A DNA stretch of 64,000 nucleotides from Planctomycetota bacterium. GTDB lineage: Bacteria > Planctomycetota > E44-bin39. The DNA lies in assembly GCA_004376375.1 (NCBI GenBank), contig SOJX01000023.1, positions 36,013 to 100,012 on the forward strand, read 5' to 3'. Positions 1 through 54,159 of this stretch are shown here, in pieces. The translations under genes and the position numbers were made by a program. The notes under the pieces were generated by a model. The model was not told where the DNA came from, did no database searches, and was given only the letters and a program-made list of their open reading frames with translations. How positions within the stretch are numbered: the first letter of the stretch is position 1; every line of letters starts with the position of its first letter.

Positions 1-220
1 GTGATTTCCATCTTTACTCCCTAATATTTCCCTCTTCCCTCAACTCCTCCCCCATCATTTCAATTTTCGATTAACGATTCTCGAATTTCGATTTTTTGCC
101 TGACTCTGCTTTGGAATTATCGCGCCGCAAGCGGCGCCTGCGGTCGACAGACAGGAATGTCTGTCCCACGATCTTATTATTTCTTTTTCCCGGTACTCGG
201 TACTCGGTACTTCTTATTCC

Positions 221-888: not shown

Positions 889-3066
889 TTATTTCCTTAT
901 TTCCTTGCACGAGCGGTAGATGAATCGAATTTCCTCAATCTTCCACGTGCCCGGTCCAGGGGGCAGATCGAGCCACAGGCTGTCCGCGATGCCGCGCTGA
1001 AAAACTGACTCGACCGGCTCTGAAAAGCGCCCGCTTCCCCCGGATTTATCAATGGAAACCAGGATATCTGAAAGCCTCATCCGCACGCCACGGACGCCCG
1101 GAACTTTCCCGATACCTCTCAGCCTGATACGCACGGGGAAACTCTCGTCAGGTTTCATGCGTAGGGGCAAGGCATGCCTTGCCCCTACAGACAATTCAAT
1201 CTCAACTTTCCACAAGCCGCAGAGCGGGACCGGCCGGTCCAGGAGCAAAGCCGTGCCGCCGCGGCCCGCGCGAAAAACGCCGGGGGAAACTATCTCGACA
1301 TCATGGCTCCGCGGTGAAAACTCTTCACCGGAAACGGTAACGGTTTCGTCGGCGCCGGCATACGCCTTCGCGGCCTCCGGGGTAACGTCTTCAAGCGTCA
1401 TCATGTCCGGATCGTACGCAATAAGGTGTGCGCCGTTCCCGAAGCGCGCGCAATCGTTTTGAAAATCTCCCGGCACGTGTGCGGAACCGGGAAAAAACGT
1501 CCATACATTTGCAGACATGGGAAAACCCGCGTGCGTAACCAGCATCGTCCTGAACCCGACCGCGAACGCCATCGCGCCGTCGACGTGCGGCGGGATATAG
1601 AGAAAATAGTAGCTGCCCGCGGCCGGCCCGGACTCCTTTACCAGCTTCCGCGCTTCACTCTCCAGCGATTTGCAGTGCATGCCCGCTTTCGTCCAGGGCG
1701 TAGTATTCAACTGGAGCATAACGCTCCACGCCAGCACAAGAAACAGTACGGCTGCTTTTCCGGGCGCACCCCGCCTTGCGAGTGCGGCCAGCGCCAGTGC
1801 AAGAATAATGCTGACCCCGAGCGTCGGCATATAGACGTACCTGGCGCAGCTCTGATAGTCGAGGTCCCTCAAGAGATGGAACACGGGCAGGAAGCTGAAC
1901 AGTGTTGCCGCGCCTGCAAAAACCATCAACCGCCAGCGGCGTCTGCGAAGGCAGAGAATTATTCCGAAACCGATAATCCCCGCGCAGATCGCCGAAAGCA
2001 ATATCGCAATAACGGGAATGCTTTCGCCGTACATCGCACGGTTTACCGGCGCCAGCCATGCGCCGAAAATATACCTCGGGTCGGCAAGCGCCCTTTTCAG
2101 CATCGTTATATGTCTTCCGGCGCTCGGGGGAATTGTCCTGTACGCGACAAGTCCCCCCAGGACACAGCATCTGATAATAAAAATGGTAATCACCGTAATC
2201 GAGCCGGCAAACCCAAGCGCCAGCCGCCGCCTGAAAACCTTTTTATTCAACGCCGCGCAAGCGCGGCCGCTAACATCACATGCCGGCAGGAGGATTACCA
2301 GCAGCAGTATGAGCGGCAGGGCCGCAAACCCGTTCTCTTTCGTCATCGGTGCCGTGCACAAAAAGGCCGCGCTGAGGACACACCGCCACCAGCCGCCGTG
2401 CCGCAGATAATTCAGACCGAAAATGAGCGCCAGCAGCGTAAACATCACGGTCATCTGATCGTGTATGCAGGAAGGCCACGCCACGGTCCCGACCGACGCG
2501 GGGTAAAGCAGGAAAAGCAGCCCGGCCAGCGCGGCCTCGATATTCAGGCGGAAAGCTCTCTTCATAAACAGGAATAGAAGCATGGCGCAGAGCGCATGAA
2601 CGACCAGGCTCGTCAGGTGGAATATCACCGGCGTAAAACCGAAAAGGCTGACCATGCAGTACCACTCGAGCCACGCGACGGGACGCCAGTACCCGACCAG
2701 AACCTGCTGCGAAAAAAAATACCCGACGCCCCGGGCACGGTGAACCGCCACGAAATTCTGCACATAGTCGTCGCAGAGGAAGCCGATTCCCAGCGTGCGG
2801 GAAAAAAGCAGAAGCGTTATCACGAAAAATACGGCGCCGACGACGGGAGCGCTAAGTCGGCGCGTCTCGCCCGGCAGCCGTCGTGACTCTTCCGGCATGC
2901 CGCTGCAAAGCGACAGGGCGATTCCAATCACAGCGACAGCAAGGCCCGGATAGTAATTAATCACATATTTCAGAAACCCCGGCAGAGCGGGAAGCTCGTT
3001 CCGGAAGAAACAGGAGACCGAGACGATAACAAACCCGAGAGCCGTGAGCGCGCACCCGGCATACAT
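889..3066 (-). CDS. polytopic membrane protein, GT-C-fold glycosyltransferase-like (YfhO/PMT-like), with a C-terminal extracytoplasmic domain
   Basis: At least 10 predicted TM helices, then a roughly 250-aa soluble C-terminal domain. The track ORF extends to 3603 but overlaps lspA, so the start is taken at the in-frame ATG at 3066 (residue 180 of the track ORF). The stop lies inside a CCTTATT tandem array. Two palindromic repeat copies sit in frame at 2246-2274 and about 1150-1185. Confidence 0.55.
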   Translation of the reverse strand: MYAGCALTALGFVIVSVSCFFRNELPALPGFLKYVINYYPGLAVAVIGIALSLCSGMPEESRRLPGETRRLSAPVVGAVFFVITLLLFSRTLGIGFLCDDYVQNFVAVHRARGVGYFFSQQVLVGYWRPVAWLEWYCMVSLFGFTPVIFHLTSLVVHALCAMLLFLFMKRAFRLNIEAALAGLLFLLYPASVGTVAWPSCIHDQMTVMFTLLALIFGLNYLRHGGWWRCVLSAAFLCTAPMTKENGFAALPLILLLVILLPACDVSGRACAALNKKVFRRRLALGFAGSITVITIFIIRCCVLGGLVAYRTIPPSAGRHITMLKRALADPRYIFGAWLAPVNRAMYGESIPVIAILLSAICAGIIGFGIILCLRRRRWRLMVFAGAATLFSFLPVFHLLRDLDYQSCARYVYMPTLGVSIILALALAALARRGAPGKAAVLFLVLAWSVMLQLNTTPWTKAGMHCKSLESEARKLVKESGPAAGSYYFLYIPPHVDGAMAFAVGFRTMLVTHAGFPMSANVWTFFPGSAHVPGDFQNDCARFGNGAHLIAYDPDMMTLEDVTPEAAKAYAGADETVTVSGEEFSPRSHDVEIVSPGVFRAGRGGTALLLDRPVPLCGLWKVEIELSVGARHALPLRMKPDESFPVRIRLRGIGKVPGVRGVRMRLSDILVSIDKSGGSGRFSEPVESVFQRGIADSLWLDLPPGPGTWKIEEIRFIYRSCKEIRK
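2246..2274. repeat. REP-like element copy located in frame inside the GT-C-like membrane protein gene
   Basis: TTCAACGCCGCGCAAGCGCGGCCGCTAAC on the plus strand encodes VSGRACAAL in the minus-strand CDS. Confidence 0.7.
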
Positions 3067-3134
3067 GACGGCGGGCCGACGAAAGACCTGGGGCAGTCCG
3101 GAATTTTCTTTTGCGTTATCGCTCAAGGTTGACT

Positions 3135-3851
3135 TCAGGATTCCTTCGGGGTCTCGGTTTCCACTTTGCGGGTAAGGAATTGCTTCGCCAGAATAAGCAC
3201 CACTCCGGCGACGATGAAGACGTCCGCCGGGTTGAAGGTCGGCCAGTGCGCGCCCGCCGGCGTACCGCGGACTTTTATCAGCCAATCGGCAAGGCCGGTC
3301 CAGAACTCGACTGAGAAATCGAGAAAGTCGCGGACCGCGTGGTGGAACATCCTGTCCCAGAGGTTCGCCACCGCGCCCGCCCCGATAAGAGAAAGCCCGA
3401 TCTGGTACACGCGCTCGCCGCCCGAAAGCCGGCTCAGAATCCAGATTATCACGCCGACGGCGACAACCGTGAAAACAATCAGGAAAGCCACGTTGGGGAG
3501 CATCCCGAACATCGCACCCGGGTTGAAAGAGAGCTGGACTGTAAAAAACTTTCTGATAACAACACGCCTGGGCGGCCGGACATCTACAACCCGTACGGGC
3601 CACTCCCCGGGGACGAGGGCAACCGGGTGAAGCCCGCTCCCGTACTCTTTTTGAAACATTGATTCAAAGGCTTTGGTATTTTTAACGTAGCCTATCTTGA
3701 ACGGGTCCTCGACGTAGACTATTCGATGGGGAACCGACCGAAACGCCAGCCACTTGCTTCCGAGGTCGATGAAGATGCCCGTAACCACCAGCACGTAAAA
3801 CAACCAGTGCGCCCTGAAATGGCGTGCAAGTTTTATTCGCAACGCTTTCAC
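3135..3851 (-). CDS. lspA: lipoprotein signal peptidase II (LspA), insertion-bearing
   Basis: Conserved LspA motifs NPGAMFG, GAVANLWDR, VRDFLDF and HWPTFNPADVFI, including both catalytic Asp residues. A roughly 70-aa insertion lies between TM1 and the NPGA motif. GTG start overlaps the stop of the upstream paralog (GTGA). Confidence 0.8.
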   Translation of the reverse strand: MKALRIKLARHFRAHWLFYVLVVTGIFIDLGSKWLAFRSVPHRIVYVEDPFKIGYVKNTKAFESMFQKEYGSGLHPVALVPGEWPVRVVDVRPPRRVVIRKFFTVQLSFNPGAMFGMLPNVAFLIVFTVVAVGVIIWILSRLSGGERVYQIGLSLIGAGAVANLWDRMFHHAVRDFLDFSVEFWTGLADWLIKVRGTPAGAHWPTFNPADVFIVAGVVLILAKQFLTRKVETETPKES

Positions 3852-4915
3852 TCTGAAGCCTCCGGCGCCTCTGGTGTCTCCGGTGCCCCTGGTGTCTCCG
3901 GCGGCTCAGGCGGCTTCGGCTTGAGAATACGGGGAAACGGCTCAGGCCCGTCCGGTATTCCCGGCCCATCCGCCTCGCGAGCGGAAGGCGGCGAAAAATC
4001 ACCGTCAGACACTTCAGGACCGTCCCATGTCTGTATTATCTGTTCCCCTGCATCTCCGGCAGCGCCTGTGCCGGATTCCGGAACAGGAGATGTTCCATCC
4101 AACACGGGCTGCGGAACAGCACCACCGGCTTCCCCTTCCGCCGCCATGTGCCCTTCACCGCTTATGACCTGCTTGATAAAGACGGTGAACACCCCGACGC
4201 AGATAAAAATATCGGCCACGTTGAAGGTGGGCCAGTGGCTCTGCCCGATCCATTCCACGCTTTCGAGCCAATTCGCAAGGCCCGGCCAGAACCCTGCGTG
4301 AAAATCCAGGAAGTCGCGCACGGCGTGGAAGTTCAGCCTGTCCCACAGGTTCCCGATCGCGCCGGCGACGATAAGCCCGAGGCTTATATGCATGGCATAC
4401 TGGGTGGGCATTAGGAACTGATGCACGATCCCGAGCATTATGGCAACCGCGACCGATGTGAACAGGATTAGAAACGCGGCCTTTGTCGGGAAAATCCCGA
4501 ACATCGCACCCGGGTTGAACGAACAGCGGACGTTCAGGAAGCCGGGAATCACCGTCCGCATGACATTCTTCTCGTCAACTCCGTCGGGGATACCTGGAAA
4601 ACGGTTTGGTTCATTGCCCCGGGCAGGCACTACGTATGTTTTGCCATCTTCTTTCTTAAGCACATATTCGCGTTGCGGCGGGTCTATAATGCTGAAAACC
4701 AGCTTCTTCGTGCCTATATCGGCGACAATTCCAAAAACAATCACGAAGTAGAAAATCCAGTGAACACGTACGGAACGGGCCATGCGAACCGCAAGCGGAA
4801 GGGATTCTTCCCATTCGGCAGCGCCGTCAACCGTTGAAGGTGGCTCGGATGTGACATCTTCGTGAACAACCGAGTCCGGAGCCGCATTATCTCTCAGTTC
4901 CGGGTTCTCATCCAT
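3848..4915 (-). CDS. lspA: lipoprotein signal peptidase II paralog with acidic N-terminal extension and Pro/Glu-rich C-terminal tail
   Basis: Same motif set as the downstream paralog (NPGAMFG, GNLWDR, VRDFLDF, HWPTFNVADIFI). Extra roughly 45 aa at the N-terminus and a roughly 100-aa low-complexity tail (PEPPETPGAPETPEAPE). Confidence 0.75.
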   Translation of the reverse strand: MDENPELRDNAAPDSVVHEDVTSEPPSTVDGAAEWEESLPLAVRMARSVRVHWIFYFVIVFGIVADIGTKKLVFSIIDPPQREYVLKKEDGKTYVVPARGNEPNRFPGIPDGVDEKNVMRTVIPGFLNVRCSFNPGAMFGIFPTKAAFLILFTSVAVAIMLGIVHQFLMPTQYAMHISLGLIVAGAIGNLWDRLNFHAVRDFLDFHAGFWPGLANWLESVEWIGQSHWPTFNVADIFICVGVFTVFIKQVISGEGHMAAEGEAGGAVPQPVLDGTSPVPESGTGAAGDAGEQIIQTWDGPEVSDGDFSPPSAREADGPGIPDGPEPFPRILKPKPPEPPETPGAPETPEAPEASE

Positions 4916-5034
4916 CTAGTATCTTTTACGCAAATAAGGGGTTCGGGTTTCAAAATATATATATGGTGTTCAGATTATAGCCCGAATTTGCCGATAGCCA
5001 AACAGGATTTGAAGTTTTTTAAGCGTACCGGTGT

Positions 5035-5904
5035 ATGTGCACCGGTATGTCCGGGGAGCGGTTTATGGCTGCCGAAAGCATGGCAAGTCGAATCTTTGTG
5101 GCGCCGATACGGGACAGAATACTGTCGCCCATCGGCTCGTACGTTGGCCGCAGCGTCCACAGCGCCGGCTATACCATGCTTATGACCTGCGAGGCGATTA
5201 TCAAGATCCCGACCCTTCTGAACTGGCGCAATTTCTGCGAGTTCCTGAGGCAGTGCTACCTGGCGGGCATCCAGAGCCTCCCGGTCGTATTCCTCGTCGG
5301 GCTTTTCGTAGGCATGATCCTCTCACTCCAGAGCGGGCTCACGCTCATGCAGTTCGGGCTTGAGCGGTTCATAGCGGAAATCACCGGCGCGGCCTTAACC
5401 CGTGAAATGGGCCCGCTCATGACGGCTATTATTCTTACCGGCCGGGTCGGAAGCTCGATGGCGGCGGAGCTGGGAACCATGTCCGTCTCCGAGGAAATCG
5501 ACGCCCTGCGCATCATGTCGATCAACCCGGTACGCTTCCTCGTCCTCCCGCGGATACTGGCGACGGTAATCATGATGGTGGTCCTTACAGTTTTCGCCAT
5601 CCTGATCGGAATATTCGGCGGTGCATTAATCGGGCAGGCGCAAATCGGAGTATCTTACGACATGTTCTTCAAGGGCGCATTCGACGTAATTACCTACAAA
5701 GACCTTTATTCCGGGCTTACCAAGGCCGCGGTTTTCGGCCTGCTGATTTCGATGATTTCCTGCTCGGAAGGCCTGCGGACCACCGGCGGCGCCGAAGGCG
5801 TCGGACGTGGCACCAGGCGGGCGGTCGTGAACTGCCTGCTTTACATAATCATGTTCAATTACATCATGGACAGCTTTATATTCCTCTTCGTTTATGGACG
5901 CTAA
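5035..5904 (+). CDS. mlaE: ABC transporter permease, MlaE/YrbE family
   Basis: Multi-TM permease with the typical MlaE core (EIDALRIMSINPVRFLVLPR). The real start may be an internal Met at about 5065-5080. A hairpin (ACCGGTG-N6-CACCGGT) overlaps the annotated start. Confidence 0.85.
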   Translation: MCTGMSGERFMAAESMASRIFVAPIRDRILSPIGSYVGRSVHSAGYTMLMTCEAIIKIPTLLNWRNFCEFLRQCYLAGIQSLPVVFLVGLFVGMILSLQSGLTLMQFGLERFIAEITGAALTREMGPLMTAIILTGRVGSSMAAELGTMSVSEEIDALRIMSINPVRFLVLPRILATVIMMVVLTVFAILIGIFGGALIGQAQIGVSYDMFFKGAFDVITYKDLYSGLTKAAVFGLLISMISCSEGLRTTGGAEGVGRGTRRAVVNCLLYIIMFNYIMDSFIFLFVYGR

Positions 5905-6763: not shown

Positions 6764-7147
6764 GTGGGGAAAAGTTTTGAAGATCTTGAAGTATGGAAAC
6801 TGGCAAGGAAATTACGGGTGGACATCTATGACATTACGGAGAGCTTTCCATCACGCGAAAAGTATTCTCTTGTGAGTCAAATGCGACGGGCTGTACTCTC
6901 TGTTCCGGGCAATATAGCGGAAGGATACGGCAGATATCACTATAAGGAAAACATTCAGATGTGCAGGATTGCACGAGGCTCTTTGAACGAGTTGATTGAT
7001 TATTTATTCGCATCTGTGGATACAAAATACATTACTCAGGCGGTTTTCGAAACTCTTTACGCACAGGCAAGGGAAGTGGAAAAGGTTCTGAACGGATATA
7101 TAAAGTATTTGCAGAAACAGGCCGGCAAGGAAAAAGAGAAAGAATAA
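6764..7147 (+). CDS. four-helix-bundle protein (TIGR02436, 23S rRNA intervening-sequence protein family)
   Basis: MGKSFEDLEVWKLARKL...FPSREKYSLVSQMRRAVLSVPGNIAEG is characteristic of the family. Inserted between mlaF and mlaD and flanked by inverted AACAAGG/CCTTGTT tandem arms (6725-6760 and 7150-7200). Confidence 0.8.
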   Translation: MGKSFEDLEVWKLARKLRVDIYDITESFPSREKYSLVSQMRRAVLSVPGNIAEGYGRYHYKENIQMCRIARGSLNELIDYLFASVDTKYITQAVFETLYAQAREVEKVLNGYIKYLQKQAGKEKEKE

Positions 7148-10207: not shown

Positions 10208-10271
10208 GTTAGCCGCGCCGCTTGCGGCGCGCGGTTTTCGGCACACCCGCCGCGCAAGCGCGGCGGCTAAC
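10208..10271. repeat. inverted pair of REP-like 29-bp elements upstream of the HEAT lipoprotein gene
   Basis: GTTAGCCGCGCCGCTTGCGGCGCGCGG ... CCGCCGCGCAAGCGCGGCGGCTAAC. Confidence 0.8.
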
Positions 10272-10441
10272 ACTGATTTCAATCAGATTACTTACATTCT
10301 ATGGCCGAATAACAATATTGCAATAAGAACATTCAACCGCCTGTCTTCCGAACCTCTTAACTTCTGAACTTCAACACTTCAGCACTTCAGCACTTCTTAA
10401 CCCCGGCACCCCAGCACCCCAGCACTCCTCCAAATTTCCCC

Positions 10442-14760: not shown

Positions 14761-14866
14761 AGAAGTACCAAGTACCGAGTACCGGGTACCGAGTGAAGAA
14801 TACCGTGATTATATTCTACTCGATACTCGGTACTCGGTACTTGGTACTTGGTACTTGGTACTTCTT
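14761..14866. repeat. about 100-nt imperfect hairpin built from GGTACTC/GAGTACC heptamer arrays, between infB and the DUF503 gene
   Basis: Left arm GAAGTACCAAGTACCGAGTACCGGGTACCGAGTGAAGAATA. Right arm TATTCTACTCGATACTCGGTACTCGGTACTTGGTACTTGGTACTTGGTACTTC. The right arm overlaps the DUF503 RBS and start. Confidence 0.85.
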
Positions 14867-15149: not shown

Positions 15150-15234
15150 AGAGGTCGTCCGGTCCTTCGGTCATGTATTTTTATTAAATACTCTTGACCG
15201 ATTGACCGAAGGACCGAGTGACCGAAGGACCATT
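15141..15234. repeat. imperfect hairpin built from GGTCCTTCGGTC/GACCGAAGGACC arrays between the DUF503 gene and rbfA
   Basis: GGTCGTCCGGTCCTTCGGTCA ... TGACCGATTGACCGAAGGACCGAGTGACCGAAGGACC. Confidence 0.8.
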
Positions 15235-15621: not shown

Positions 15622-15708
15622 AGTATGAAGGATGAAAAGAAGAATATATTATTAATAATATAATAATTAGCCGCCGAGCTTGCTCGGCGTGTCTTTTGGG
15701 TTAAAATA

Positions 15709-17876: not shown

Positions 17877-17881
17877 AAAAT

Positions 17882-17909
17882 GTAGGGGCACAGCGCGCTG
17901 TGCCCCTAC
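17882..17909 (+). terminator. hairpin TGTAGGGGCACAGCGCGCTGTGCCCCTACA between acyl-CoA dehydrogenase and carboxyltransferase genes
   Basis: Perfect 12-bp stem. Member of the TAGGGGC...GCCCCTA palindrome family. Attenuator or processing-site function is speculative. Confidence 0.4.
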
Positions 17910-17936
17910 AACATATACACCAGCCGGAGATTGAAA

Positions 17937-19496
17937 ATGTCACTCGAAGAAATGAACGAAAAAATCAAGGCCGTCGAGGACCGCCGCGCAGTTATCCACG
18001 CGGGCGGCGGCCCGAAAGCCGTCGAGAAGGTCCACAAGAGCGGAAAGATGACCGCACGCGAGCGGCTCGACTACCTGTACGACGACGGCACCTTCATGGA
18101 GTACGACGTCTTCGCAAAGCACATCGGCCGCGACTACGGCCTCGACAAGAAAGACGTGCCGGCCGACGGCGTCGTCACGGGCTACGGTAAGATCAACGGC
18201 AGGCCCGCATTCTGTTACAGCGAAGACTTCACCGTAATCGCCGGAACATTCGGCGAAATGCACGGACGCAAAATCGGCAAGACCGTCGACCTCGCCCGCG
18301 AAATGGGCGTACCGCTCATCGGCATCAACGACTCCGGCGGCGCCCGTGTCACCGAGGAGATGGGCGCGCTGTCGATGTACGGCCGGCTCTTCTACAGGCA
18401 CGTGCGCACCTCCGGCGTTGTCCCTCAGATCGCGCTGATTATGGGTCCGGTCGCAGGCGGGCAGGCATACTCGCCGGCGCTCATGGACTTCATCTTCATG
18501 GTCCGCAATACAAGCTACATGTTCATTGCCGGACCCCCGCTGGTGAAAGCCGTCGTCTTCGAGGACGTAACCGTCGACGACCTCGGCGGGCCCGACGTCC
18601 ACGCCCGGGTATCGGGCGTAAGCGACCTTACGACCGAAAACGACAAAGACTGCCTCGATAGAACCAAAAGATTGCTTTCGTTTCTACCACTGAACTCAAA
18701 GGAAGACGCCCCTTACATCGAGCCTGAGGACGACCCGGGACGAATCGATGAAGAACTCCGTAAAATCGTCCCGACCGACCCGAACGTGCTATACGACATG
18801 CACGAAGTCATCAACCGCATCGTGGACGGCAGTGATTTCTTCGAGATCAAGCCCGAGTACGCTGCAAACCTTATTATCGGCTTCGCCCGCATGAGCGGAC
18901 ACGTGACCGGCATCGTCGCAAACAACCCGAAAGTCATGGCCGGCTGCCTCGACTTCAAGGCGTCCGACAAGGGCTCCCGTTTTATCCGTTTCTGCAACGC
19001 GTTCAACATACCGCTTCTGAACCTTCAGGACGTGCCCGCATACCTCATCGGCTCCAAGTCGGAGCGCGACGGAATCATCCGCCACGGCGCGAAGATGCTT
19101 TACGCCTACGCCGAGTGCACCGTGCCGCTGGTTACCTGCGTTCTCCGCAAAGCATATGCCGGCGGATACCTTGCGATGTGCTCAAAAGACCTGGGCGCGG
19201 ATTTCCTTTTCGAGCTGCCGACCGGTGAAATATGCCTGATGGGCCCTCCGGGCGCGGTAAATATTCTTTTTAGAAAAGAAATCGCGGCGGCCGACGACCC
19301 GGAGGCCGAGCGCGCAAAGCGCCAGAAAGAGTTCTACGACAAGTTCGTCAACCCGCAGTACTCGGCGGCATTGCAGCATGTTGACGATATCATAGATCCT
19401 GCTATAATGCGGCCGACGTTTATAAAGGCGTTCGACATAATCAGGAACAAGGACGACCGGCTGCCGGACAAAAAATTCGGAATAACGCCCGTTTAG
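17937..19496 (+). CDS. acyl-CoA carboxyltransferase subunit (methylmalonyl-CoA decarboxylase alpha / propionyl-CoA carboxylase beta type)
   Basis: Carboxyltransferase domain pair (GGARVTEEMGALSMYG, AGGAYLAMCSKDLGAD). ATG at 17937 is preferred over the TTG at 17931. Confidence 0.9.
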   Translation: MSLEEMNEKIKAVEDRRAVIHAGGGPKAVEKVHKSGKMTARERLDYLYDDGTFMEYDVFAKHIGRDYGLDKKDVPADGVVTGYGKINGRPAFCYSEDFTVIAGTFGEMHGRKIGKTVDLAREMGVPLIGINDSGGARVTEEMGALSMYGRLFYRHVRTSGVVPQIALIMGPVAGGQAYSPALMDFIFMVRNTSYMFIAGPPLVKAVVFEDVTVDDLGGPDVHARVSGVSDLTTENDKDCLDRTKRLLSFLPLNSKEDAPYIEPEDDPGRIDEELRKIVPTDPNVLYDMHEVINRIVDGSDFFEIKPEYAANLIIGFARMSGHVTGIVANNPKVMAGCLDFKASDKGSRFIRFCNAFNIPLLNLQDVPAYLIGSKSERDGIIRHGAKMLYAYAECTVPLVTCVLRKAYAGGYLAMCSKDLGADFLFELPTGEICLMGPPGAVNILFRKEIAAADDPEAERAKRQKEFYDKFVNPQYSAALQHVDDIIDPAIMRPTFIKAFDIIRNKDDRLPDKKFGITPV

Positions 19497-19510
19497 TGGT
19501 TAGTCGTTTT

Positions 19511-19539
19511 GTTAGCGGCGCCGCTTGCGCGGCGTTGAA
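19511..19539. repeat. REP-like element GTTAGCGGCGCCGCTTGCGCGGCGTTGAA
   Basis: Consensus copy with an internal CGCCGC-TTGC-GCGGCG hairpin. Lies between the carboxyltransferase and gamma-subunit genes. Confidence 0.8.
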
Positions 19540-19560
19540 TAATAAAATCGGATTAAATTC

Positions 19561-21721: not shown

Positions 21722-21890
21722 CATCGGTTATTGGTTATTGGTTATTGGTTATTGGTTAAAAATATGGGAAGCACCACGCCGGAAGGCGTGGTGACAATTG
21801 AGCGGGCGGGCTTGCCCGCCGTTAAAACAAAATTCGGGCGGGTCGCCGACCCGCCCAACACATAACGCGCGAAGCTCATTTGATTGGTGG

Positions 21891-21910
21891 GGCAGACATT
21901 CCTGTCTGCC
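21891..21910. repeat. GACAGACA-N4-TGTCTGTC palindrome family member (GGCAGACATTCCTGTCTGCC) adjacent to TAACGCGCGAAGCTC
   Basis: Other copies at 146-165, 23127-23146 and 45289-45310. The TAACGCGCGAAGCTC motif is at 21863-21877 and 45316-45330, and in reverse complement at 49745-49759. Confidence 0.8.
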
Positions 21911-22083
21911 CGCCGCAGGCGAAAGCCTGCGGCGAAACGCGGCGAGCAAGCTCGCCGGCTAATTACTGAGAAAACTCAATATCCATTGTATAAAAAACCG
22001 TTCTTAAAAAAGAAGTGATTCGACACTCGAAAATCGTAAATCGAAAATCACATATCGGCTACAATGAAGGCGCAGGTTGAACT

Positions 22084-22721: not shown

Positions 22722-22855
22722 AAAGTATGAAGGATGAAGGATAAAGGATGAAATTTATATTTAATAATTCTTAATTCATATTTCAGACTTCACACTTCTG
22801 CCTTCATACTTCAGCCTTCATACTTCATCCTTTCTTTACGGTTCGCGCTCTGAAT
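22722..22855. repeat. long hairpin of AGTATGAAGGATGAAGG / CCTTCATACTTCAT arrays between convergent genes
   Basis: AGTATGAAGGATGAAGGATAAAGGATGAAA ... CTTCATACTTCAGCCTTCATACTTCATCCTTTC around an AT-rich loop. Confidence 0.8.
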
Positions 22856-23099: not shown

Positions 23100-23182
23100 T
23101 GCGTATACCCGCAAAATAATCGGTACGACAGACATTTCTGTCTGTCGATTGCAGGGGCAAGGCATGCCTTGCCCCTACATTT

Positions 23183-24688
23183 TTACACGATAATATCTAT
23201 CAGTTGCAATCCCTCGGGCCCGCCGAAACCTTCGAGGAAACGCCTCGGCGGCGCTTCCGGGTCGCGCACGGCCGTGCGCACCTCGACCTCGTAACCGAGC
23301 TGCCGGAGCGCGCCCTCGAGAATGTATGCGCGCGTATCGAAAAGCGCCTTCGTCGCCTCGTCATCTACAATGAATCCGACGACGATGTTGCGCCGGTCCA
23401 TCACCACTTCGCCGAGCACGTCGCCGAGATACTCGAGCGACAGATCGATAACCGCCCTGCGCGGGGTTTCGTCATCGCCGGCTTCGCGGCCCCCGCGCCT
23501 GACGTTGAACCGCAGGCGAATGCAATCCTCGGCCGCGCCGAACGCAACGAGAAGCTGGGCGTAGCTGACGTCGTCGAGCGCCGCCGTCGCCGCCGCGTTC
23601 AAAGCCTTGACCGCCGCGAACCTGTCGGAAAGCCGATCGAGCTCTCCGTACGCCCGGGCAAGGGGCTTGAAGATTTCATACCGCGAAATCTCGAATTTCT
23701 CCCGGTCCTGGAGTAATCGGTGCGCGTCTTTCAATTCCGCCGGGCGAAGCTGCTTCAGGAGATTAACCAGGGCATCGCCGTCGGGCTTTTCCGCAATTAT
23801 CGCCGCGCGGACGTCTTTGCCGAGGACAGCCTTTCCCCCCGCTTCGCCTGCTTCCTGACCGGCTTCGGCAATCAGCTTCGCCGCCGCGGCGACAGCCTTG
23901 CCGAGCTCGACGAGCACCGGGTCTGATTTCAGAATGCCGCTTGCTATCGATTCGATCCCGGCCTGGAACGCCCGCGCCTGCTCGACAGCTCCGCCGCGCG
24001 CAAGGTTTGCAAGCTCTCCGGCCGTCCCCGCCTGCTCCAGAGTAACATGCAGGGCGTGAAGCCCGCCCGCAATCTCCTTTACGGCAGCGGTCTGCCCGAG
24101 CCCGGGAAAATGCGCCCGGTCGAGCGCGTTCGCAGCGTTACGCAGAACCCGTGCGGTTTCTCCCACGGGCCGTGCAAGGTCGGCCGCGGCCGCCACCAGG
24201 CGCGGGGTAAGCGGAATATTATTTTTTACCAGATACGCCGCCGCGGTCACCGCGGCGGGGAAATCGACCGGCGCATGCGCCGCAGCCGTTCGGACGGCCT
24301 CGATATTTTCCAGCGTCGCCGACGCGCCCGCGCGGTTGAGCGCTTCTACGATAACCAGGTTTTCGCGCGTCGGCTGCAGCCCCATATCGGCCAGAGCGGT
24401 CATAATCGTCCGCGGCGCGGCCGGCGCAGTCGCGTCGAGGGACGGGGCGACCGGCACAAGCGTAACACCGCCCCCGTCGCGCGGTTCAACGGCAAACTGC
24501 ACAAGTTCGCCTTCGGCGAGCGTGAACGGAACGGTCATTGAAAACGTGGCGCCGAAAAGGTTGACGAGGGGCTGACCGTCGGGCGAAATTCCGACGACGC
24601 GGCCGGTGACGGTCGAACCGATGTAGGCCGCCAGCGTGTCGGGCAGACCGCCCGGAGTTGGTGAAAATCCGAATGCAGATATATCCAT
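23183..24688 (-). CDS. Flg_hook-domain-like protein (FliK-like / YlqG-like), function unknown
   Basis: 501 aa, Ala-rich. The C-terminal segment VIDLSLEYLGDVLGEVVMDRRNIVVGFIVDDEATKALF resembles the hook-length-control C-terminal domain. Immediately upstream of the FlhB-C-like gene. Confidence 0.45.
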   Translation of the reverse strand: MDISAFGFSPTPGGLPDTLAAYIGSTVTGRVVGISPDGQPLVNLFGATFSMTVPFTLAEGELVQFAVEPRDGGGVTLVPVAPSLDATAPAAPRTIMTALADMGLQPTRENLVIVEALNRAGASATLENIEAVRTAAAHAPVDFPAAVTAAAYLVKNNIPLTPRLVAAAADLARPVGETARVLRNAANALDRAHFPGLGQTAAVKEIAGGLHALHVTLEQAGTAGELANLARGGAVEQARAFQAGIESIASGILKSDPVLVELGKAVAAAAKLIAEAGQEAGEAGGKAVLGKDVRAAIIAEKPDGDALVNLLKQLRPAELKDAHRLLQDREKFEISRYEIFKPLARAYGELDRLSDRFAAVKALNAAATAALDDVSYAQLLVAFGAAEDCIRLRFNVRRGGREAGDDETPRRAVIDLSLEYLGDVLGEVVMDRRNIVVGFIVDDEATKALFDTRAYILEGALRQLGYEVEVRTAVRDPEAPPRRFLEGFGGPEGLQLIDIIV

Positions 24689-25217: not shown

Positions 25218-25300
25218 CAAGCGAAAAGGAAGTGCTGGAGTGCTGGCGTGCTGGAGTGCTGGCGTGCTGGAGTGCTGGGGTGCTGGGGTGCTGGAGTTAG
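25218..25300. repeat. tandem array of nine (A/G)GTGCTGG octamers
   Basis: GTGCTGGAGTGCTGGCGTGCTGG and so on. The same unit appears in reverse complement at 10365-10430 and 40525-40560. Confidence 0.85.
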
Positions 25301-25305
25301 CGGCC

Positions 25306-25381
25306 GTGATTGCGCGGCGTTGATTAATTATGATTAAGACCAACGCGCCGCCGACCACACCCGCCACGCGGCCCCGCTAAC
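25306..25381. repeat. inverted pair of REP-like elements around TTAATTATGATTAAGACC
   Basis: GTTAGCGGCCGTGATTGCGCGGCGTTGA ... CAACGCGCCGCCGACCACACCCGCCACGCGGCCCCGCTAAC. Confidence 0.75.
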
Positions 25382-28136: not shown

Positions 28137-28310
28137 TGCGCTGTCACAAAAAGTTCACTAATTATTCAGTTATTCAGTTACCCGGTTATTCAGTTATTCA
28201 GTTACCCGGTTATTCAGTTATTCAGTTAAAAATAAAACTGAATAACTGAATTACTGAATTACTGAATAACCAAAATAGCTGATAGCTGATAGCTGAACGC
28301 TGACAGCTCA
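28137..28310. repeat. hairpin of CAGTTATTCAGTTA / TAACTGAATAACTG arrays followed by a TAGCTGA tandem array
   Basis: Inverted arms 28137-28200 and 28215-28265. Then TAGCTGATAGCTGATAGCTGAACGCTGACAGCTCA. Confidence 0.8.
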
Positions 28311-28376
28311 TAATTATCTCTAAATACAAACTTATCGAACCCGAATAACGTCTGATAATAAGTATAAAGTTTTTGC

Positions 28377-29821: not shown

Positions 29822-30035
29822 GAATTATGAAGTATGAAGTATGAAGGCTGAAGTATGAAAAAGAATTGTAAATTGAGAATTGTAGATTGAGAATTGCAAA
29901 TTGGAAATTGTCAATACTCAATTTCCAATACTCAATTCGCAAACGGAAAGGACGAATTAAGAATTATTAAATATAAATTTTATCCTTCATCCTTCATACT
30001 TCATACTTCATACTTTATCCTTCATCCTTTGTTTA
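29822..30035. repeat. nested double hairpin: outer ATGAAGTATGAAGG arms, inner AATTGAGAATTGTAGATTGAG arms
   Basis: Outer arms 29825-29855 and 29970-30035. Inner arms 29860-29905 and 29905-29945. Directly upstream of the GH lipoprotein gene. Confidence 0.8.
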
Positions 30036-38313: not shown

Positions 38314-38430
38314 TTATTCCTCCCAGCGCACAACAAACTTGTTAAGTCCAGACGCGGCGACAAGACGACAAGGAGACCCGGCGACAAGGAGACAAGGAGA
38401 AATATTCTATTTTAAGAATTTCAAGGCTCG

Positions 38431-38820: not shown

Positions 38821-38918
38821 TTTCTCTCCGAAAGCCTTGTTTTATTTTCGCCTTGTCTCCTTGTCTCCTTGTCAACTTGTCTGAGCGCTCAACACATTAT
38901 CGTCCAAACAGGCAGAAC

Positions 38919-40370: not shown

Positions 40371-40374
40371 CTCC

Positions 40375-40470
40375 GGTTATTCGGTTCTTCGGTTACTCGG
40401 TTCTTCGGTTCCTCGGTTATTCGGTTATCCGGTTCTTCGGTTCTTCGGTTCTTCGGTTTTATTTCTTAAG
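40375..40470. repeat. tandem array of about twelve CGGTT(C/A)TT octamers between dapA and pdxJ
   Basis: CGGTTATTCGGTTCTTCGGTTACTCGGTTCTTCGG and so on. Followed by GCGCAGCAAGCTGCGC palindrome, CACTTCAGCACTTCAAC and CATCCTTCATACTTCAT arrays up to 40600. Confidence 0.85.
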
Positions 40471-40587
40471 AAACGCGCAGCAAGCTGCGCCGCTATATAT
40501 ATTATTAAATTATTCCCTCTTAACTTCAGCACTTCAACACCTCAGCACTTCAACACTTCTTAACTTTCATCCTTCATACTTCATCCT

Positions 40588-41322
40588 TCATACTTTCTTC
40601 TCGAATTTATCCAGGAGTTCGCGCATCTCGCGCACGGCCGGGCCGATGCCCGTGAAAATCGCGCGCGCGATAATCGCGAACCCGATGTTGACTTCCTCGA
40701 GCTCGGGAATCGCCGCCACCGGGCCGATGTTATGGTAATCAAGCCCGTGACCGGCGATAACGGCCAGGCCATTTTTCGCGGCAATCTGCGAGCCGAGAAT
40801 CAGGTCGGCCAGCGCTTGTTCCCGCGCAGTGCCGCGGGCGTTGCAGTATATTCCGGTGTGAAGCTCGACGGCCTGCGCGCCGACCTTTGCCGAAGCCTCG
40901 ATCTGCTCCGGCACGGGGTCGATGAACAGCGACACGAAAATCCCGCTGTCCCGAAGCCGCCCGGCCACGGCCTGCACTTTGTCTGCCGAGCCCGCGACGT
41001 CGAGACCGCCTTCGGTCGTCACCTCTTCGCGCCGCTCGGGGACGAGCGTGCATTGATAAGGTTTCACCTCGCATGCGATATCGACGATTTCATCCCACGT
41101 CGCCATTTCAAGGTTGAGGTGCGTCTTCACGGTTTCGCTCATCAGGCGCACGTCGCGGTCGTTGATATGTCGTCGGTCCTCGCGCAGGTGAATAGTTATC
41201 CCGTCGGCACCGTTCATCTCGCAGACGGCCGCGGCCGCCACGGGGTCGGGAAACGGCTCACGCCTCGCCTGCCGCACGGTTGCGACATGGTCTACATTAA
41301 CACCAAGACGAATCATTTTCAC
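40588..41322 (-). CDS. pdxJ: pyridoxine 5-prime-phosphate synthase
   Basis: PdxJ N-terminal signature [15 protein letters not shown]. Confidence 0.95.
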
Positions 41323-43359: not shown

Positions 43360-43674
43360 ACGTGCATTTCCGGCCCGTTCGGCGGCATGGTAGCACGGTC
43401 CCGCAAAAGCGGCAAGGGGAAAATAGGGTACGGAGCATCAATCGCGTAAGTTCAGACACGGCAATGGGAAGACACGGTGACAAGGAGACACGGAGAAAAG
43501 GAGACACGGAGAAAAAAGATATATTGACGGAAGGACCGAAAGACCGAAGGACCAAAGGACCAATAGACCACTTCACAAAAATGAAAAAAATTCTCGAATC
43601 CGCGTTTGAATCGGTTACAATACCCACTGTAAGGAGTACCCAGCCTGGAAGAATCTTCACCTGAGGGGGATAAC

Positions 43675-44232
43675 ATGGCGACAATCGGGGCCCGCCTGAG
43701 AAACTGGTGGCTCAACCGGTATTACCAGCGGAAATTCAACGAGCTCGGCGGACCGATAAAGTTCCGTGGAACGCCGATAATAAGAAACTCCGGCACGCTG
43801 AAAGCGGGGAAGAAACTATACTTACTTTCATACTGGAAGCCGATCTTTATAATGGTCCGCAGGGGCGGCGTGCTCGAGTTCGGCGACGGGGTGAATATTA
43901 ACCACGGCGTGCACATCGCCGCTTTCAAGAGCATAAAGATCGGACACCAGTGCGGCATCGGCATGGACGTGATGATAATGGACAGCGACTTCCACGAGCT
44001 GGACTCGGAAAAGGGAACAATCGAGGCCGCCGAGGTCGTGCTGGAGGACCACGTCTGGATCGCAAACCGGGCGATCGTGCTGAAGGGAGTGCGCATCGGC
44101 GCCGGGGCCGTCGTCGCGGCGAACTCGGTCGTAACGAAAGACGTGGAGCCCAATATGCTTGTCGCGGGAATCCCCGCGAAGCCGATCAAGAAAGTCAACC
44201 GCAACATGCTGCATCCGGAAGATAAGCTTTAA
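43675..44232 (+). CDS. hexapeptide-repeat (left-handed beta-helix) acetyltransferase
   Basis: Repeated [LIV]-G-x-x-x-x hexapeptides ([17 protein letters not shown]). Confidence 0.8.
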
Positions 44233-45197
44233 TGAAAATCCTTATCGCCGGCGCGTACGACAACGTGCCCCACACGACCGTGAAATTCATGGAAAAGGCT
44301 TTCAGAAGCCTCGGGCACGACGTCGAGATTTTCGATTTCCGCAGGATAAGGAAAGAGCGCGGCGGCTCGGAGATGGAATCGCAAATGCTGGCGACGGTCC
44401 GCGAAACAGAACCGGACACCATGATTCTCATGAAGGGCGAAGACATCAACTTGCGTACTATTATAGCAATAGGAGAACACACGCACGTCTCGCTCAGGTA
44501 TATGGATTCGCCGCTCCCGCGCTGGCTGAGGAAGCTCGCCGCCGCATGCGATTCGACTTTTATCACCGCCGGCGGGCTTGTCGCTGAATTCGAGAAGGCC
44601 GGCGTGAAAAACGTATTCCATCTCTGGGAGGGCGTCGACCCCGAGGTCCACAGGCACTGGGAAACGGATACAGATGATTTCGAATGCGACGTCGCGTTCG
44701 TGGGCGTGAACAAGGCCGGGCGTGACGCGCTTCTCTCCACCGTGATCGAGACCGGCGCGGACGTCGCCGTATACGGCCGCAAATGGCCCGCGGGCTTCCC
44801 GGTCAGAGGCGAGGGAATATATCTGGACGATTTTGCAAAACTCTGCAGCAGGGCGAAAATCGTTCTCGGCATGAACGACAACAACTCTATCGAGAATTAT
44901 TTCTCCGACCGCACGTTCCAGATCCCGGCCTGCCGCGGCTTTCACATTACCAGCCGCGTGCCGGGCATGGAAAACTGGTTCACCGACGGCGGACACCTGG
45001 TATGCTTCGACATAGGGCGCGGACGCGGTAAAAAAAAGTACGCCGACGCGGCGGATAAGGTAAAATACTGGCTCGACCGGCCGGACGAGCGGGTCCGTAT
45101 AGCCGCCGCCGGACAGAAATGGGTCTACGAGCGCTACACCTGGAAAAAAGTGTGCGCCGGGATGACGGGAAAGATAGAAGCTCTGATTTCCTGTTAG
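44232..45197 (+). CDS. glycosyltransferase-like protein (CgeB/DUF3880-like)
   Basis: Soluble GT-B-like layout. Translationally coupled to the upstream acetyltransferase (TAATG overlap). Confidence 0.5.
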   Translation: MKILIAGAYDNVPHTTVKFMEKAFRSLGHDVEIFDFRRIRKERGGSEMESQMLATVRETEPDTMILMKGEDINLRTIIAIGEHTHVSLRYMDSPLPRWLRKLAAACDSTFITAGGLVAEFEKAGVKNVFHLWEGVDPEVHRHWETDTDDFECDVAFVGVNKAGRDALLSTVIETGADVAVYGRKWPAGFPVRGEGIYLDDFAKLCSRAKIVLGMNDNNSIENYFSDRTFQIPACRGFHITSRVPGMENWFTDGGHLVCFDIGRGRGKKKYADAADKVKYWLDRPDERVRIAAAGQKWVYERYTWKKVCAGMTGKIEALISC

Positions 45198-45405
45198 CGG
45201 CCGCGCTTGCGCGGCGCTGAATAAAAAAAGGAAAACAAGGGAACAAGAAAACAAGGAAACAAGGAAGAAAGGAATAAGGAAATGGTAGGACAGACATTCC
45301 TGTCTGTCCATAAGATAACGCGCGAAGCTCCTTAACCCTTGTTGCCTTGTCAACCTGTTACCTTGTCACTTCCCCAGTCAACGCGCCGCAAGCGGCGCCG
45401 CTAAC
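45193..45405. repeat. composite nested palindromic element with no gene inside
   Basis: GTTAGCGGCCGCGCTTGCGCGGCGCTGAA (45193-45221) and its inverted copy (45378-45405) bracket the AACAAGG array (45225-45285), the GGACAGACATTCCTGTCTGTCC palindrome (45289-45310), TAACGCGCGAAGCTC (45316-45330) and the CCTTGTT array (45335-45370). Confidence 0.85.
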
Positions 45406-49118: not shown

Positions 49119-49708
49119 TCTATTACGCCCGCAAGCTCGGCGTGTACATTATCATGCTCGTCCTGCTCGCGCTTGCGGTTTTCCAGACGCCGCGCATCGA
49201 CAGCTTCATCGTCGGCGCGGTACTGGCCGCCGTCGGGCTTGCCCTGCGCGTGTGGGCGTGCGGACACCTTTATAAAAACGAAAAACTCGCCTGCACGGGA
49301 CCGTACGCGCACCTGAAGCACCCGCTTTACCTGGGAACTTTTTTCATCGTCTTCGGCCTGCTCTCGCCGATGTTTTTCCATTTCGAAATGACTGCCGACA
49401 ACTTCTTCAAGTTTCCAACCTTCTACCTGGCGATTTTCTGCATCCTGGTTCTTATTATCGTCTACCTGCCCCGTAAGGCGCGCGACGAGCATGAGCGGCT
49501 TGTCAAGCGGTTCGGTGAGCCCTACGTCAAGTGGGACGAAAACGTGCCCAACTACTTCCCCCGCCTGCGCGGTTACGACATGGGCGACAAGGCGCGCTTC
49601 TCGTTCTCACAGATGTTTGTCAACAGCGAGCACTTGACCGTAGCCGCCGTCACGGTCGGATTTATCGTTATTGCCTTCCGCTGGTGGCAAGCACTTTTTA
49701 AGGGATAA
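49097..49708 (+). CDS. isoprenylcysteine carboxyl methyltransferase (ICMT/PEMT) family membrane methyltransferase
   Basis: Multi-TM protein with the C-terminal ICMT-like motif region (HLYKNEKLACTGPYAHLKHPLYLG). Confidence 0.65.
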   Translation: MAHGTKVIYYARKLGVYIIMLVLLALAVFQTPRIDSFIVGAVLAAVGLALRVWACGHLYKNEKLACTGPYAHLKHPLYLGTFFIVFGLLSPMFFHFEMTADNFFKFPTFYLAIFCILVLIIVYLPRKARDEHERLVKRFGEPYVKWDENVPNYFPRLRGYDMGDKARFSFSQMFVNSEHLTVAAVTVGFIVIAFRWWQALFKG

Positions 49709-49888
49709 GGGATAGGGGATAAGGGATAAGGGACAAGTAATAACGAGCTTCGCGCGTTATTAAACAGAAATTCTTCCATATATACACATTCCTGAATTGC
49801 CAAAACAGATACCCGCTACTGAGATTAGGTATTTTATCGGGTATTATATGCCGTTATCGCATTTTTTAGGCAATTATTCATTTTCCAT

Positions 49889-49916
49889 TTGACAATATCT
49901 CAATTATGCGTATAAT
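49889..49916 (+). promoter_or_regulatory. sigma-70-like promoter upstream of the first YfbK-like VWA gene (TTGACA-16-TATAAT)
   Basis: Sits in a 260-bp AT-rich intergenic region. Confidence 0.5.
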
Positions 49917-49971
49917 CCTGATAGAAAGCCTGCGATGTTCAAATTATCGAATTCAAAAAAGGAGAAGTGTT

Positions 49972-51945: not shown

Positions 51946-52025
51946 TCAGCCGATTATCCGGCATACAGTCTATGCAGAACTGAAGATTGGACTCAGATTA
52001 TGTTGTTATAAAAAGGAGAAGTGTT

Positions 52026-54017: not shown

Positions 54018-54159
54018 AGTATGAAGTATAAAGTATGAAGGATGAAAACAAGAAATACTGAAGTCATTTTGACTTCGGATTGCGGATTGAGAATTAATGT
54101 CAACAGGGGCGCGGCACGCCGCGCCCCTGCAATCCTATTTGTCAATTAATGGACAGCAG

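Follow-up and report, generated by a model that had tools for sequence, protein, structure and literature searches.

Can short palindromic repeats of two different families enter one protein-coding gene and be translated without breaking its reading frame? This question is raised by a stretch of 64,000 nucleotides (nt) from a Planctomycetota bacterium (assembly GCA_004376375.1, contig SOJX01000023.1, positions 36,013 to 100,012; hereafter the window), in which an earlier note, made from the sequence alone, had described palindromic elements of two repeat families within a membrane glycosyltransferase-like gene located at 889-3066 on the minus strand. Both palindromes, here called elements A and B, do lie in frame in an intact open reading frame (ORF) that runs from an ATG at 3066 and encodes a membrane protein of 725 amino acids (aa). 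The explanation that we consider probable is that two hairpin elements resembling repetitive extragenic palindromes (REPs) were secondarily acquired and are tolerated in variable loops of this single gene.

Element A is a 36-nt segment (TGTTAGCGGCCGCGCTTGCGCGGCGTTGAATAAAAA, 2240-2275, minus strand) of exactly 12 codons, which encodes VSGRACAALNKK (aa 265-276); the gene frame reads VSGRACAALNK(K). The in-frame copy first noticed at 2246-2274 (29 nt, GTTAGCGGCCGCGCTTGCGCGGCGTTGAA on the minus, coding strand) was correctly identified, but the stretch shared with other copies is longer. The hairpin core of the element (2252-2267) has a 6-bp stem and a CTTG loop, and RNA folding of the element in a 50-nt context gives -15.1 kcal/mol. 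Copies of GTTAGCGGCCGCGCTTGCGCGGCGTTGAA with at most 3 mismatches were found at 19511, 25296 and 45193, where none is expected in shuffled sequences. The intergenic segment 45192-45227 matches element A at 35 of 36 nt (97%), with no mismatch over the 29-nt query, and 19510-19545 is 92% identical over 36 nt. Hydrophobic segments at aa 241-273 and 280-312 flank the element, so that hydropathy agrees with the proposed location in a loop between transmembrane helices; the placement in the structural model (helix 244-259, coil 260-267, helix 268-302) is of low confidence. Element A and the VFRRR that follows it form a strongly basic stretch, which by the positive-inside rule suggests a cytoplasmic loop.

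Element B is a perfect palindrome of 28 nt (GTAGGGGCAAGGCATGCCTTGCCCCTAC, 1161-1188, no strand being assigned to copies of this family) with GTAG at both ends and a 12-bp stem; its RNA fold reaches -25.0 kcal/mol. It is read in frame as VGARHALPL (aa 627-635) in the C-terminal domain, as had been proposed, its true position being 1161-1188 and not about 1150-1185. It recurs at 23151-23178 with a single mismatch (none expected), and the intergenic copy reported at 23151-23179 was recovered with 27 of 27 matches over 23153-23179. The stretch that holds element B is poorly conserved and comes after a conserved GLWK(V/I)E motif. The model shows a strand (620-625), a coil and a second strand (645-650) around it, in a C-terminal domain whose predicted local distance difference test score (pLDDT), below 50, is too poor to place B reliably.

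The database gene call for the host gene begins further upstream, at 3126, and gives a protein of 745 aa (P0001 from JGI, identical to P0028, TET38450.1, whose record is named 'MAG: hypothetical protein E3J72_02875 [Planctomycetota bacterium]', MAG standing for metagenome-assembled genome). It consists of a GT-C glycosyltransferase-like N-terminal domain (about aa 70-470), with several hydrophobic segments by hydropathy, and an uncharacterised C-terminal domain. A Pfam search of the protein gave no match at E<=1, curated models such as PF13231 (PMT_2) included. With phmmer, its N-terminal half matches 'protein O-mannosyl-transferase' and PMT_2+TPR proteins (best E 3.5e-15), these and the weaker matches carrying PF13231 or TPR domains; the homologues of our initial protein search are all at most 29% identical. 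Nine residues (F96, D99, D100, P129, H150, H157, K243, P394 and R409) are invariant with respect to the PMT_2/TPR homologues in an alignment of 15 sequences, and F96, D99 and D100 among them include the acidic DD motif that is a feature of the first extracytoplasmic loop of GT-C enzymes. An AlphaFold (AF2) model has pLDDT values of 60-90 in the membrane domain. The top 33 Foldseek matches of this model in the PDB are all GT-C enzymes (AftA, STT3, Pmt4, PglB, ArnT), the best being AftA (8if8, E 3.5e-6), with TM-scores of just 0.3-0.4 for a model of mean pLDDT 53. Because fold matches, remote homology and shared invariant residues agree, the label of membrane glycosyltransferase-like gene is supported at the level of the superfamily, as the earlier note had it, though no Pfam model matches.

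Element A is flanked by conserved residues (K243 upstream, P394 and R409 downstream), which places it within the catalytic membrane domain rather than at the junction of two genes. We accordingly rejected a gene fusion in which A would mark a former gene end: both the GT-C homology and P0029, the closest homologue described below, are collinear across it.

Both elements have relatives in the intergenic DNA. The anchor for family A was the set of perfect hairpins that have CTTG as their loop and 6 bp or more of stem. The window holds 10 of them versus 0.16 expected from first-order Markov simulations, and CAAG/CTTG is by far the commonest tetraloop among its perfect hairpins (10 of 46). Sixteen copies were aligned in register (the perfect set of the window, two imperfect copies, three in flanking DNA of this genome and one in a relative). 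They delineate a TTAGC motif at a fixed distance from a variable, self-complementary stem of 6-8 bp with a CTTG loop. The (G/A)TTAGC flank is present in 11 of the 16 copies, or 12 with the GTTTAGC of the relative's contig L061; its A, G and C are nearly invariant 5' of the stem, and the closing pair and loop, G-CTTG-C, are invariant except in the degenerate copy at 25296 (ATTG). The stems vary yet remain complementary: 21 double-sided changes affect 4 of the 7 pairs, a biased count, since perfect pairing was the criterion by which most copies were selected. Family B comprises four copies with stems of 10-13 bp, which share the outer stem AGGGGC/GCCCCT and differ by compensated changes in the inner stem; three of them have GTAG on one end or both, the alternative being GCAG or ACAG.

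We surveyed about 80 kb of this genome, namely the 64-kb window and 16.6 kb of additional sequence (L001 13127-22238 and L062 1-7500); a different part of the genome is represented in the read set SRR7716471. It contains 15 further A-type hairpins (12 in the window and 3 in the additional sequence) and three further B copies, all intergenic. No other A or B copy inside a coding sequence (CDS) was found in these 80 kb, which is the extent to which the genome-wide check for coding copies advised in the earlier note could be answered. In a typical spacer, a sense copy follows a stop codon at a distance of 5-100 nt, and the far end of the spacer often holds a second, inverted copy; inverted A pairs are located at 10214/10247, 21805/21940 and 45200/45383. 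Three other long perfect hairpins within CDSs (24238, 51299 and 58524) were dropped from the analysis as singletons, the one at 51299 being ordinary coding sequence shared with a paralogue.

To compare the gene with its homologues we relied mainly on P0029 (712 aa), the one real relative retrieved when the C-terminal 256 aa served as query in an exhaustive HMMER search. P0029 is collinear with the full query (37% identity by BLASTP, 1e-154; 39% by MAFFT), and its gene follows the same two lspA-like (Peptidase_A8) genes on L061, a contig of 4.4 kb from the JGI metagenome 3300040952. There is no palindrome at either element site in the P0029 DNA. At site A, the query sequence PACDVSGRACAALNKKVFRRR is aligned with PGKGEEGRL-------QFRRK, a gap of 7 aa, and at site B, LSVGARHALPLRMKPDESF is aligned with SSL----ADGSEYKDWEAL, a gap of 4 aa. 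The query shows five such gaps relative to P0029 (3, 7, 4, 4 and 3 aa), with A at the largest and B at the joint second; we calculate a probability of about 0.01 that A and B would each overlap one of these gaps by chance. This comparison, which the earlier note had recommended with orthologues, favours insertion. Peptides of the VSGRACAALNK(K) or VGARHALPL type were found neither in P0029 nor in 14 distant homologues, so the first objection that the note had foreseen, the same peptides encoded by non-palindromic codons elsewhere, finds no support. The second, a non-coding 3' part of the ORF, fails as well: homology with P0029 stays in the same frame on either side of each element and extends to the C-terminus, which indicates that the 3' part is coding.

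The host gene diverges far more than its surroundings. Between the window and L061, protein identity is 80% and 89% for the two lspA-like neighbours but just 37-39% for the GT-C gene products (window 889-3066 versus L061 2143-4281). At the DNA level, identity is 87% until 60 nt into the GT-C gene (breakpoint at window position 3007) and no similarity is detectable thereafter. The end of L061 (4424-4448) corresponds to the start of a second, tandem GT-C paralogue, of which the first 25 nt match window positions 3063-3039 at 24 of 25; the genome of the window has no second GT-C copy at this locus. This pattern suggests that the host gene behaves as a hypervariable or cassette-type gene, possibly a surface-glycan gene replaced by recombination, which may explain the tolerance of two insertions.

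We therefore propose the following scenario. Two unrelated families of short REP-like hairpins populate the intergenic DNA of this Planctomycetota genome, and one copy of each would have been copied secondarily into a fast-diverging GT-C-type gene. Neither copy disrupts the reading frame: each is read in one of its frames that has no stop codon, and each would sit in a segment that varies and tolerates indels (for A a basic loop flanked by two hydrophobic helices, for B a coil between two predicted beta-strands). The protein would thus have stayed intact and the copies would not have been purged. One of the three sense frames of A and two of the three of B are open, and both genic copies use an open frame, as predicted for the survival of rare compatible insertions. 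The elements would be passengers and not adaptations of the gene, with 12 and 9 encoded residues for a net gain in length of 7 and 4. Among the 16 loop-aligned copies, genic A is most similar to that at 45200 (plus strand, 38 of 46 positions), then to that at 19511 (plus strand, 36 of 46), the others scoring 18-34 of 46. Genic B matches its twin at 27 of 27 positions, and the two B variants are 78% identical. The existence of one near-identical intergenic twin for each genic copy suggests recent copying, and we infer from this that the event was a gain, and a recent one; the host protein is presumably made. Copying could have proceeded by single-strand transposition of the type attributed to REP-associated tyrosine transposases (RAYTs), as proposed for REPs, by ectopic recombination, or by template switching between hairpins.

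Several observations weigh against this scenario. Relative to P0029 the query is longer by 7 and 4 aa, less than the 12 and 9 aa that the elements encode. The insertions are thus not clean, and the shortfall implies either the replacement or loss of native residues or a prior difference between the loops. The loop that holds element A counts 20 residues in the query and 13-20 in the 14 distant homologues; deprived of the element it would count 8, below all 14. P0029, at 37-39% identity, may be a paralogue rather than a strict orthologue, as L061 begins a second tandem copy at its end. No true empty site was seen in a close relative, and no closer relative of the host protein was present in the protein libraries or metagenome contigs; in the metagenome scan for such relatives, patterns matched in 66 stretches, none of which was confirmed. 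No transposase is encoded among the approximately 46 ORFs of the window and no target-site duplication is visible at the elements. Finally, only about 80 kb of genome bear on the frequency of coding copies.

Four alternatives have to be considered. We judge it unlikely that the locus is decaying or dispensable, pseudogene-like, with repeats piling up unselected and the peptides never made. Such decay would account for two hits in a single 2.2-kb gene when about 53 kb of the window is coding (by our own arithmetic, a chance of about 4% for the second hit), for the low identity with the syntenic counterpart next to well-conserved neighbours, for the failure to match any Pfam model, and for the presence of strong mRNA hairpins of -15 and -25 kcal/mol. 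However, the ORF comprises 725 uninterrupted codons in two assemblies, all the residues invariant across the 15 family members are kept, DD motif included, homology with P0029 remains in frame to the last residues, and both elements occupy ORF-preserving frames, as selection on an expressed gene predicts.

Slightly less likely still is the possibility that the intragenic hairpins are selected regulatory features (pausing, attenuation or RNA processing) drawn from the intergenic repertoire. Both genic copies have the sense orientation that is typical of intergenic copies 3' of genes, the A class combines a G-CUUG-C loop on the transcribed strand with compensated stems (the 21 double-sided changes in 4 of 7 pairs mentioned above), and the relative's A copy carries a canonical T-run terminator tail. 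Against this, the tail of genic A is GTTGAATAAAAAGG and that of genic B GCATGAAACC, and neither copy is followed by the U-run of an intrinsic terminator; neither element marks a domain boundary, as each occupies a mid-domain position, A within the GT-C membrane domain and B within the C-terminal one; P0029, the closest homologue, has neither hairpin; and the covariation count is biased toward perfect hairpins. 

Very improbable is the idea that the elements are ancestral coding sequence or the product of convergence, the intergenic copies being unrelated or derived from the gene. The length of the A-holding loop, equal to that of some distant homologues, would fit, but this idea is already contradicted by matches of 35 of 36 and 27 of 27 nt, beyond chance with none expected in shuffles, by the occurrence of the same hairpin class in intergenic DNA of the related contig and in further MAGs of Planctomycetota (about 32 times in one of Tepidisphaerales), and by peptides that no homologue shares. 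An assembly artefact, in which mis-joined reads introduced the palindromes, is hardly credible: palindromes and repeats are error-prone in short-read metagenome assemblies, but a second, non-identical assembly (GCA_030588815.1, contig JAUUWX010000023.1, 3 substitutions relative to the window in 11,774 nt) carries both elements base for base, and the reading frame and the P0029 homology run on across both sites.

The secondary acquisition of two tolerated elements, which we favour, has precedents. The earlier note had considered in-frame palindromic elements rare outside Rickettsia; this was overstated, since intragenic GTAG/CGTC REPs are known in several species, with some ORFs hit twice (Di Nocera et al. 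2013, PMC3733652). The highest count of intragenic GTAG REPs was reported for Opitutus terrae, a bacterium of the Planctomycetes-Verrucomicrobia-Chlamydiae (PVC) group in which some ORFs carry two copies, and REPs together with tyrosine transposases were reported in the planctomycete R. baltica (PMC3733652). Like REPs, which are palindromic stem-loops of 20-40 nt present in many copies, mostly intergenic, near ORF 3' ends and often in inverted dimers (PMC3733652), families A (10 perfect copies in 64 kb plus imperfect ones) and B (4 copies) are short repeated palindromes, predominantly intergenic and ORF-3'-proximal, with inverted dimers. They also resemble REPs in having sub-families with alternative complementary stem residues and occasional in-frame genic copies (PMC3733652). 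Family B, with GTAG on one end or both in three of its four copies, may belong to the GTAG class. The tag of family A, in contrast, is GTTAGC/ATTAGC, neither GTAG nor CGTC, so family A may not belong to either of the two defined REP superfamilies. A further difference is that the REPs of PMC3733652 are often found in DNA-repair genes, whereas the host gene here encodes a GT-C membrane protein. The A and B sequence strings are absent from the supplementary files of PMC3733652, and an Rfam scan of the whole window gave no match.

Rickettsia palindromic elements (RPEs) are palindromic, lie in frame in unrelated genes and are tolerated as extra peptide segments (Ogata et al. 2000; PMC10969869). 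Only the in-frame property is shared with A and B. RPEs are longer, at about 100-150 bp with a conserved peptide tens of residues in length, versus 28-36 nt (9-12 aa) here, and they occur in dozens of genes of obligate intracellular Alphaproteobacteria, versus one gene hit in about 80 kb of a Planctomycetota MAG. Neither family is an RPE, as size and taxon do not fit. Several copies recall intrinsic (Rho-independent) terminators in being GC-rich hairpins right after stop codons, and those at 15672, 40475 and L061 4336 have T-rich tails. Unlike in intrinsic terminators, a T-run is absent from most copies, the two genic ones among them, and many copies stand in inverted pairs or upstream of genes.

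Family A is not confined to this genome. It is present in intergenic DNA of the related contig L061, where the copy at 4336 carries the T-run tail. The motif GTTAGCGG followed by a stem and a CTTG loop is part of a longer repeat, about 100 nt in length, that a Tepidisphaerales MAG carries in about 32 copies; other Phycisphaerae-type MAGs contain the motif too. In the Tepidisphaerales MAG (JBBRYX01 contigs, L002-L060), these repeats share the core GTTAGCGGCCCCGCTTGCGGGGCG and the inverted arms TTAATTCCTGCGCC/GGCGCGAGAATTAA; this repeat is a relative of family A, resembling a miniature inverted-repeat transposable element (MITE), in another order of Planctomycetota. None of the Tepidisphaerales copies is convincingly intragenic, their positions being upstream of the first plausible start of open frames. 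The scan of genome contigs for family A also gave chance matches in coding DNA of Alphaproteobacteria, and a metagenome scan for the A subfamily gave no match.

It is tempting, if unlikely, to go further and see in family A a third class of REP tag, beside GTAG and CGTC, spread across Planctomycetota (this MAG, the relative represented by L061, and the Tepidisphaerales/Phycisphaerales MAGs) and still mobile, which together with family B would supply new loop sequence to a hypervariable, cassette-type GT-C gene for surface glycans. REP insertion would then be a recurrent source of novelty in protein loops in this lineage, and not a one-off. The phenomenon itself is already documented in other bacteria, and we describe here another example. 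As a clean, doubly hit case from an uncultured planctomycete, it joins a short list of genes with translated REP-type palindromes and supports the view that a gene can survive the lengthening of its protein loops by REP-type elements. For annotation, it implies that stable palindromes within ORFs need not mean assembly errors or gene ends. Translated hairpins by themselves open no new question; the modular hairpins and tandem arrays described below, together with the hyperdivergent GT-C gene, are perhaps more interesting leads.

The individual family A copies are as follows. The closest intergenic twin of genic A (45192-45227, plus strand) has its inverted partner (45383-45398, minus strand) at the opposite end of that spacer. 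It overlaps the Glyco_trans_1_2 glycosyltransferase gene 44232-45197 upstream of it at 45192-45197 and provides the TAG stop of this gene, which indicates that the repeats can also shape C-termini. The copy at 19510-19545 (plus strand), with an imperfect stem, is located 14 nt past the stop of a carboxyltransferase gene (17931-19496), and that at 25295-25330 (plus strand), with the degenerate ATTG loop, has a partial inverted partner about 90 nt downstream. An inverted pair is formed by the hairpins 10214-10231 (plus) and 10247-10266 (minus). Hairpins with T-rich tails are located 3' of rbfA (15672-15689, plus; terminator-like) and 3' of pdxJ (40475-40490, minus; gene 40588-41322, minus). The degenerate hairpin at 122-137 (minus) keeps the CTTG loop and lacks the TTAGC flank. 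The repeat family announced in the earlier note is real, but its list of copies needs amendment: the position given as 25306 is 25296, the copy given at 119 is this degenerate one, and those at 10247 (minus), 15672, 21805, 21940 (minus) and 40475 (minus) had been missed.

The intergenic twin of genic B (23151-23178) lies 5 nt beyond the stop of the gene 23183-24688 (minus strand). Two B variants with compensated inner stems are located 5 nt after the stop of an acyl-CoA dehydrogenase gene (17881-17910) and between convergent genes (54104-54129).

A third hairpin family, GACAGACAGGAATGTCTGTC, with a stem of 8-9 bp and a GGAA/TTCC loop, is represented at 146-165, 21890-21911, 23126-23147 and 45288-45309; its copies are always intergenic and always adjoin an A or B element. 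The intergenic region between the genes for oxaloacetate decarboxylase beta and a DUF2225 protein is particularly rich in hairpins, with six different perfect ones (stems of 6-10 bp) within 186 nt (21772-21957). The A-type hairpins at 21805-21820 (plus) and 21940-21957 (minus) lie near both ends of this cluster and bracket it.

Almost every intergenic spacer also contains tandem arrays of 3-10 copies of a 7- or 8-nt unit that changes from spacer to spacer (TTCCCTTA, AGTGCTGG, TTATTCAG, CGGTTCTT, GACCGAAG, TACTCGG and others). Such arrays are found at 860-906, 10359-10425, 14764-14862, 15196-15231, 21726-21758, 22723-22832, 25231-25297, 28162-28312, 29822-30029, 38350-38400, 38851-38882, 40374-40595, 43470-43561, 45231-45279, 49699-49743 and 54014-54046. 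They are often arranged as inverted pairs with a hairpin between them, and such arrays also occur on the relative's contig (L061 4285-4400).

Directly upstream of the GT-C gene are two tandem paralogues of signal peptidase II (Peptidase_A8), at 3135-3851 and 3848-4915, the latter with a long N-terminal extension and a PE/PET-rich tail; this tandem arrangement is kept in L061. Elsewhere in the window, a gene for a four-helix bundle of the 23S-rRNA-IVP/bAvd type (6764-7147) interrupts an Mla operon, where it separates the mlaF-like gene from the mlaD-like one, and two VWA/YfbK genes (49906-51945 and 51987-54017) are tandemly duplicated, with 72-79% DNA identity over repeated blocks. Palindromes of the form TACCGGTG...CACCGGTA occur in the divergent lspA/mlaE promoter region (5026-5047) and inside an M16 peptidase gene (58524-58550). 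The former may be an operator site, and a similar sequence is present upstream of lspA in the relative (L061, about 165-195).

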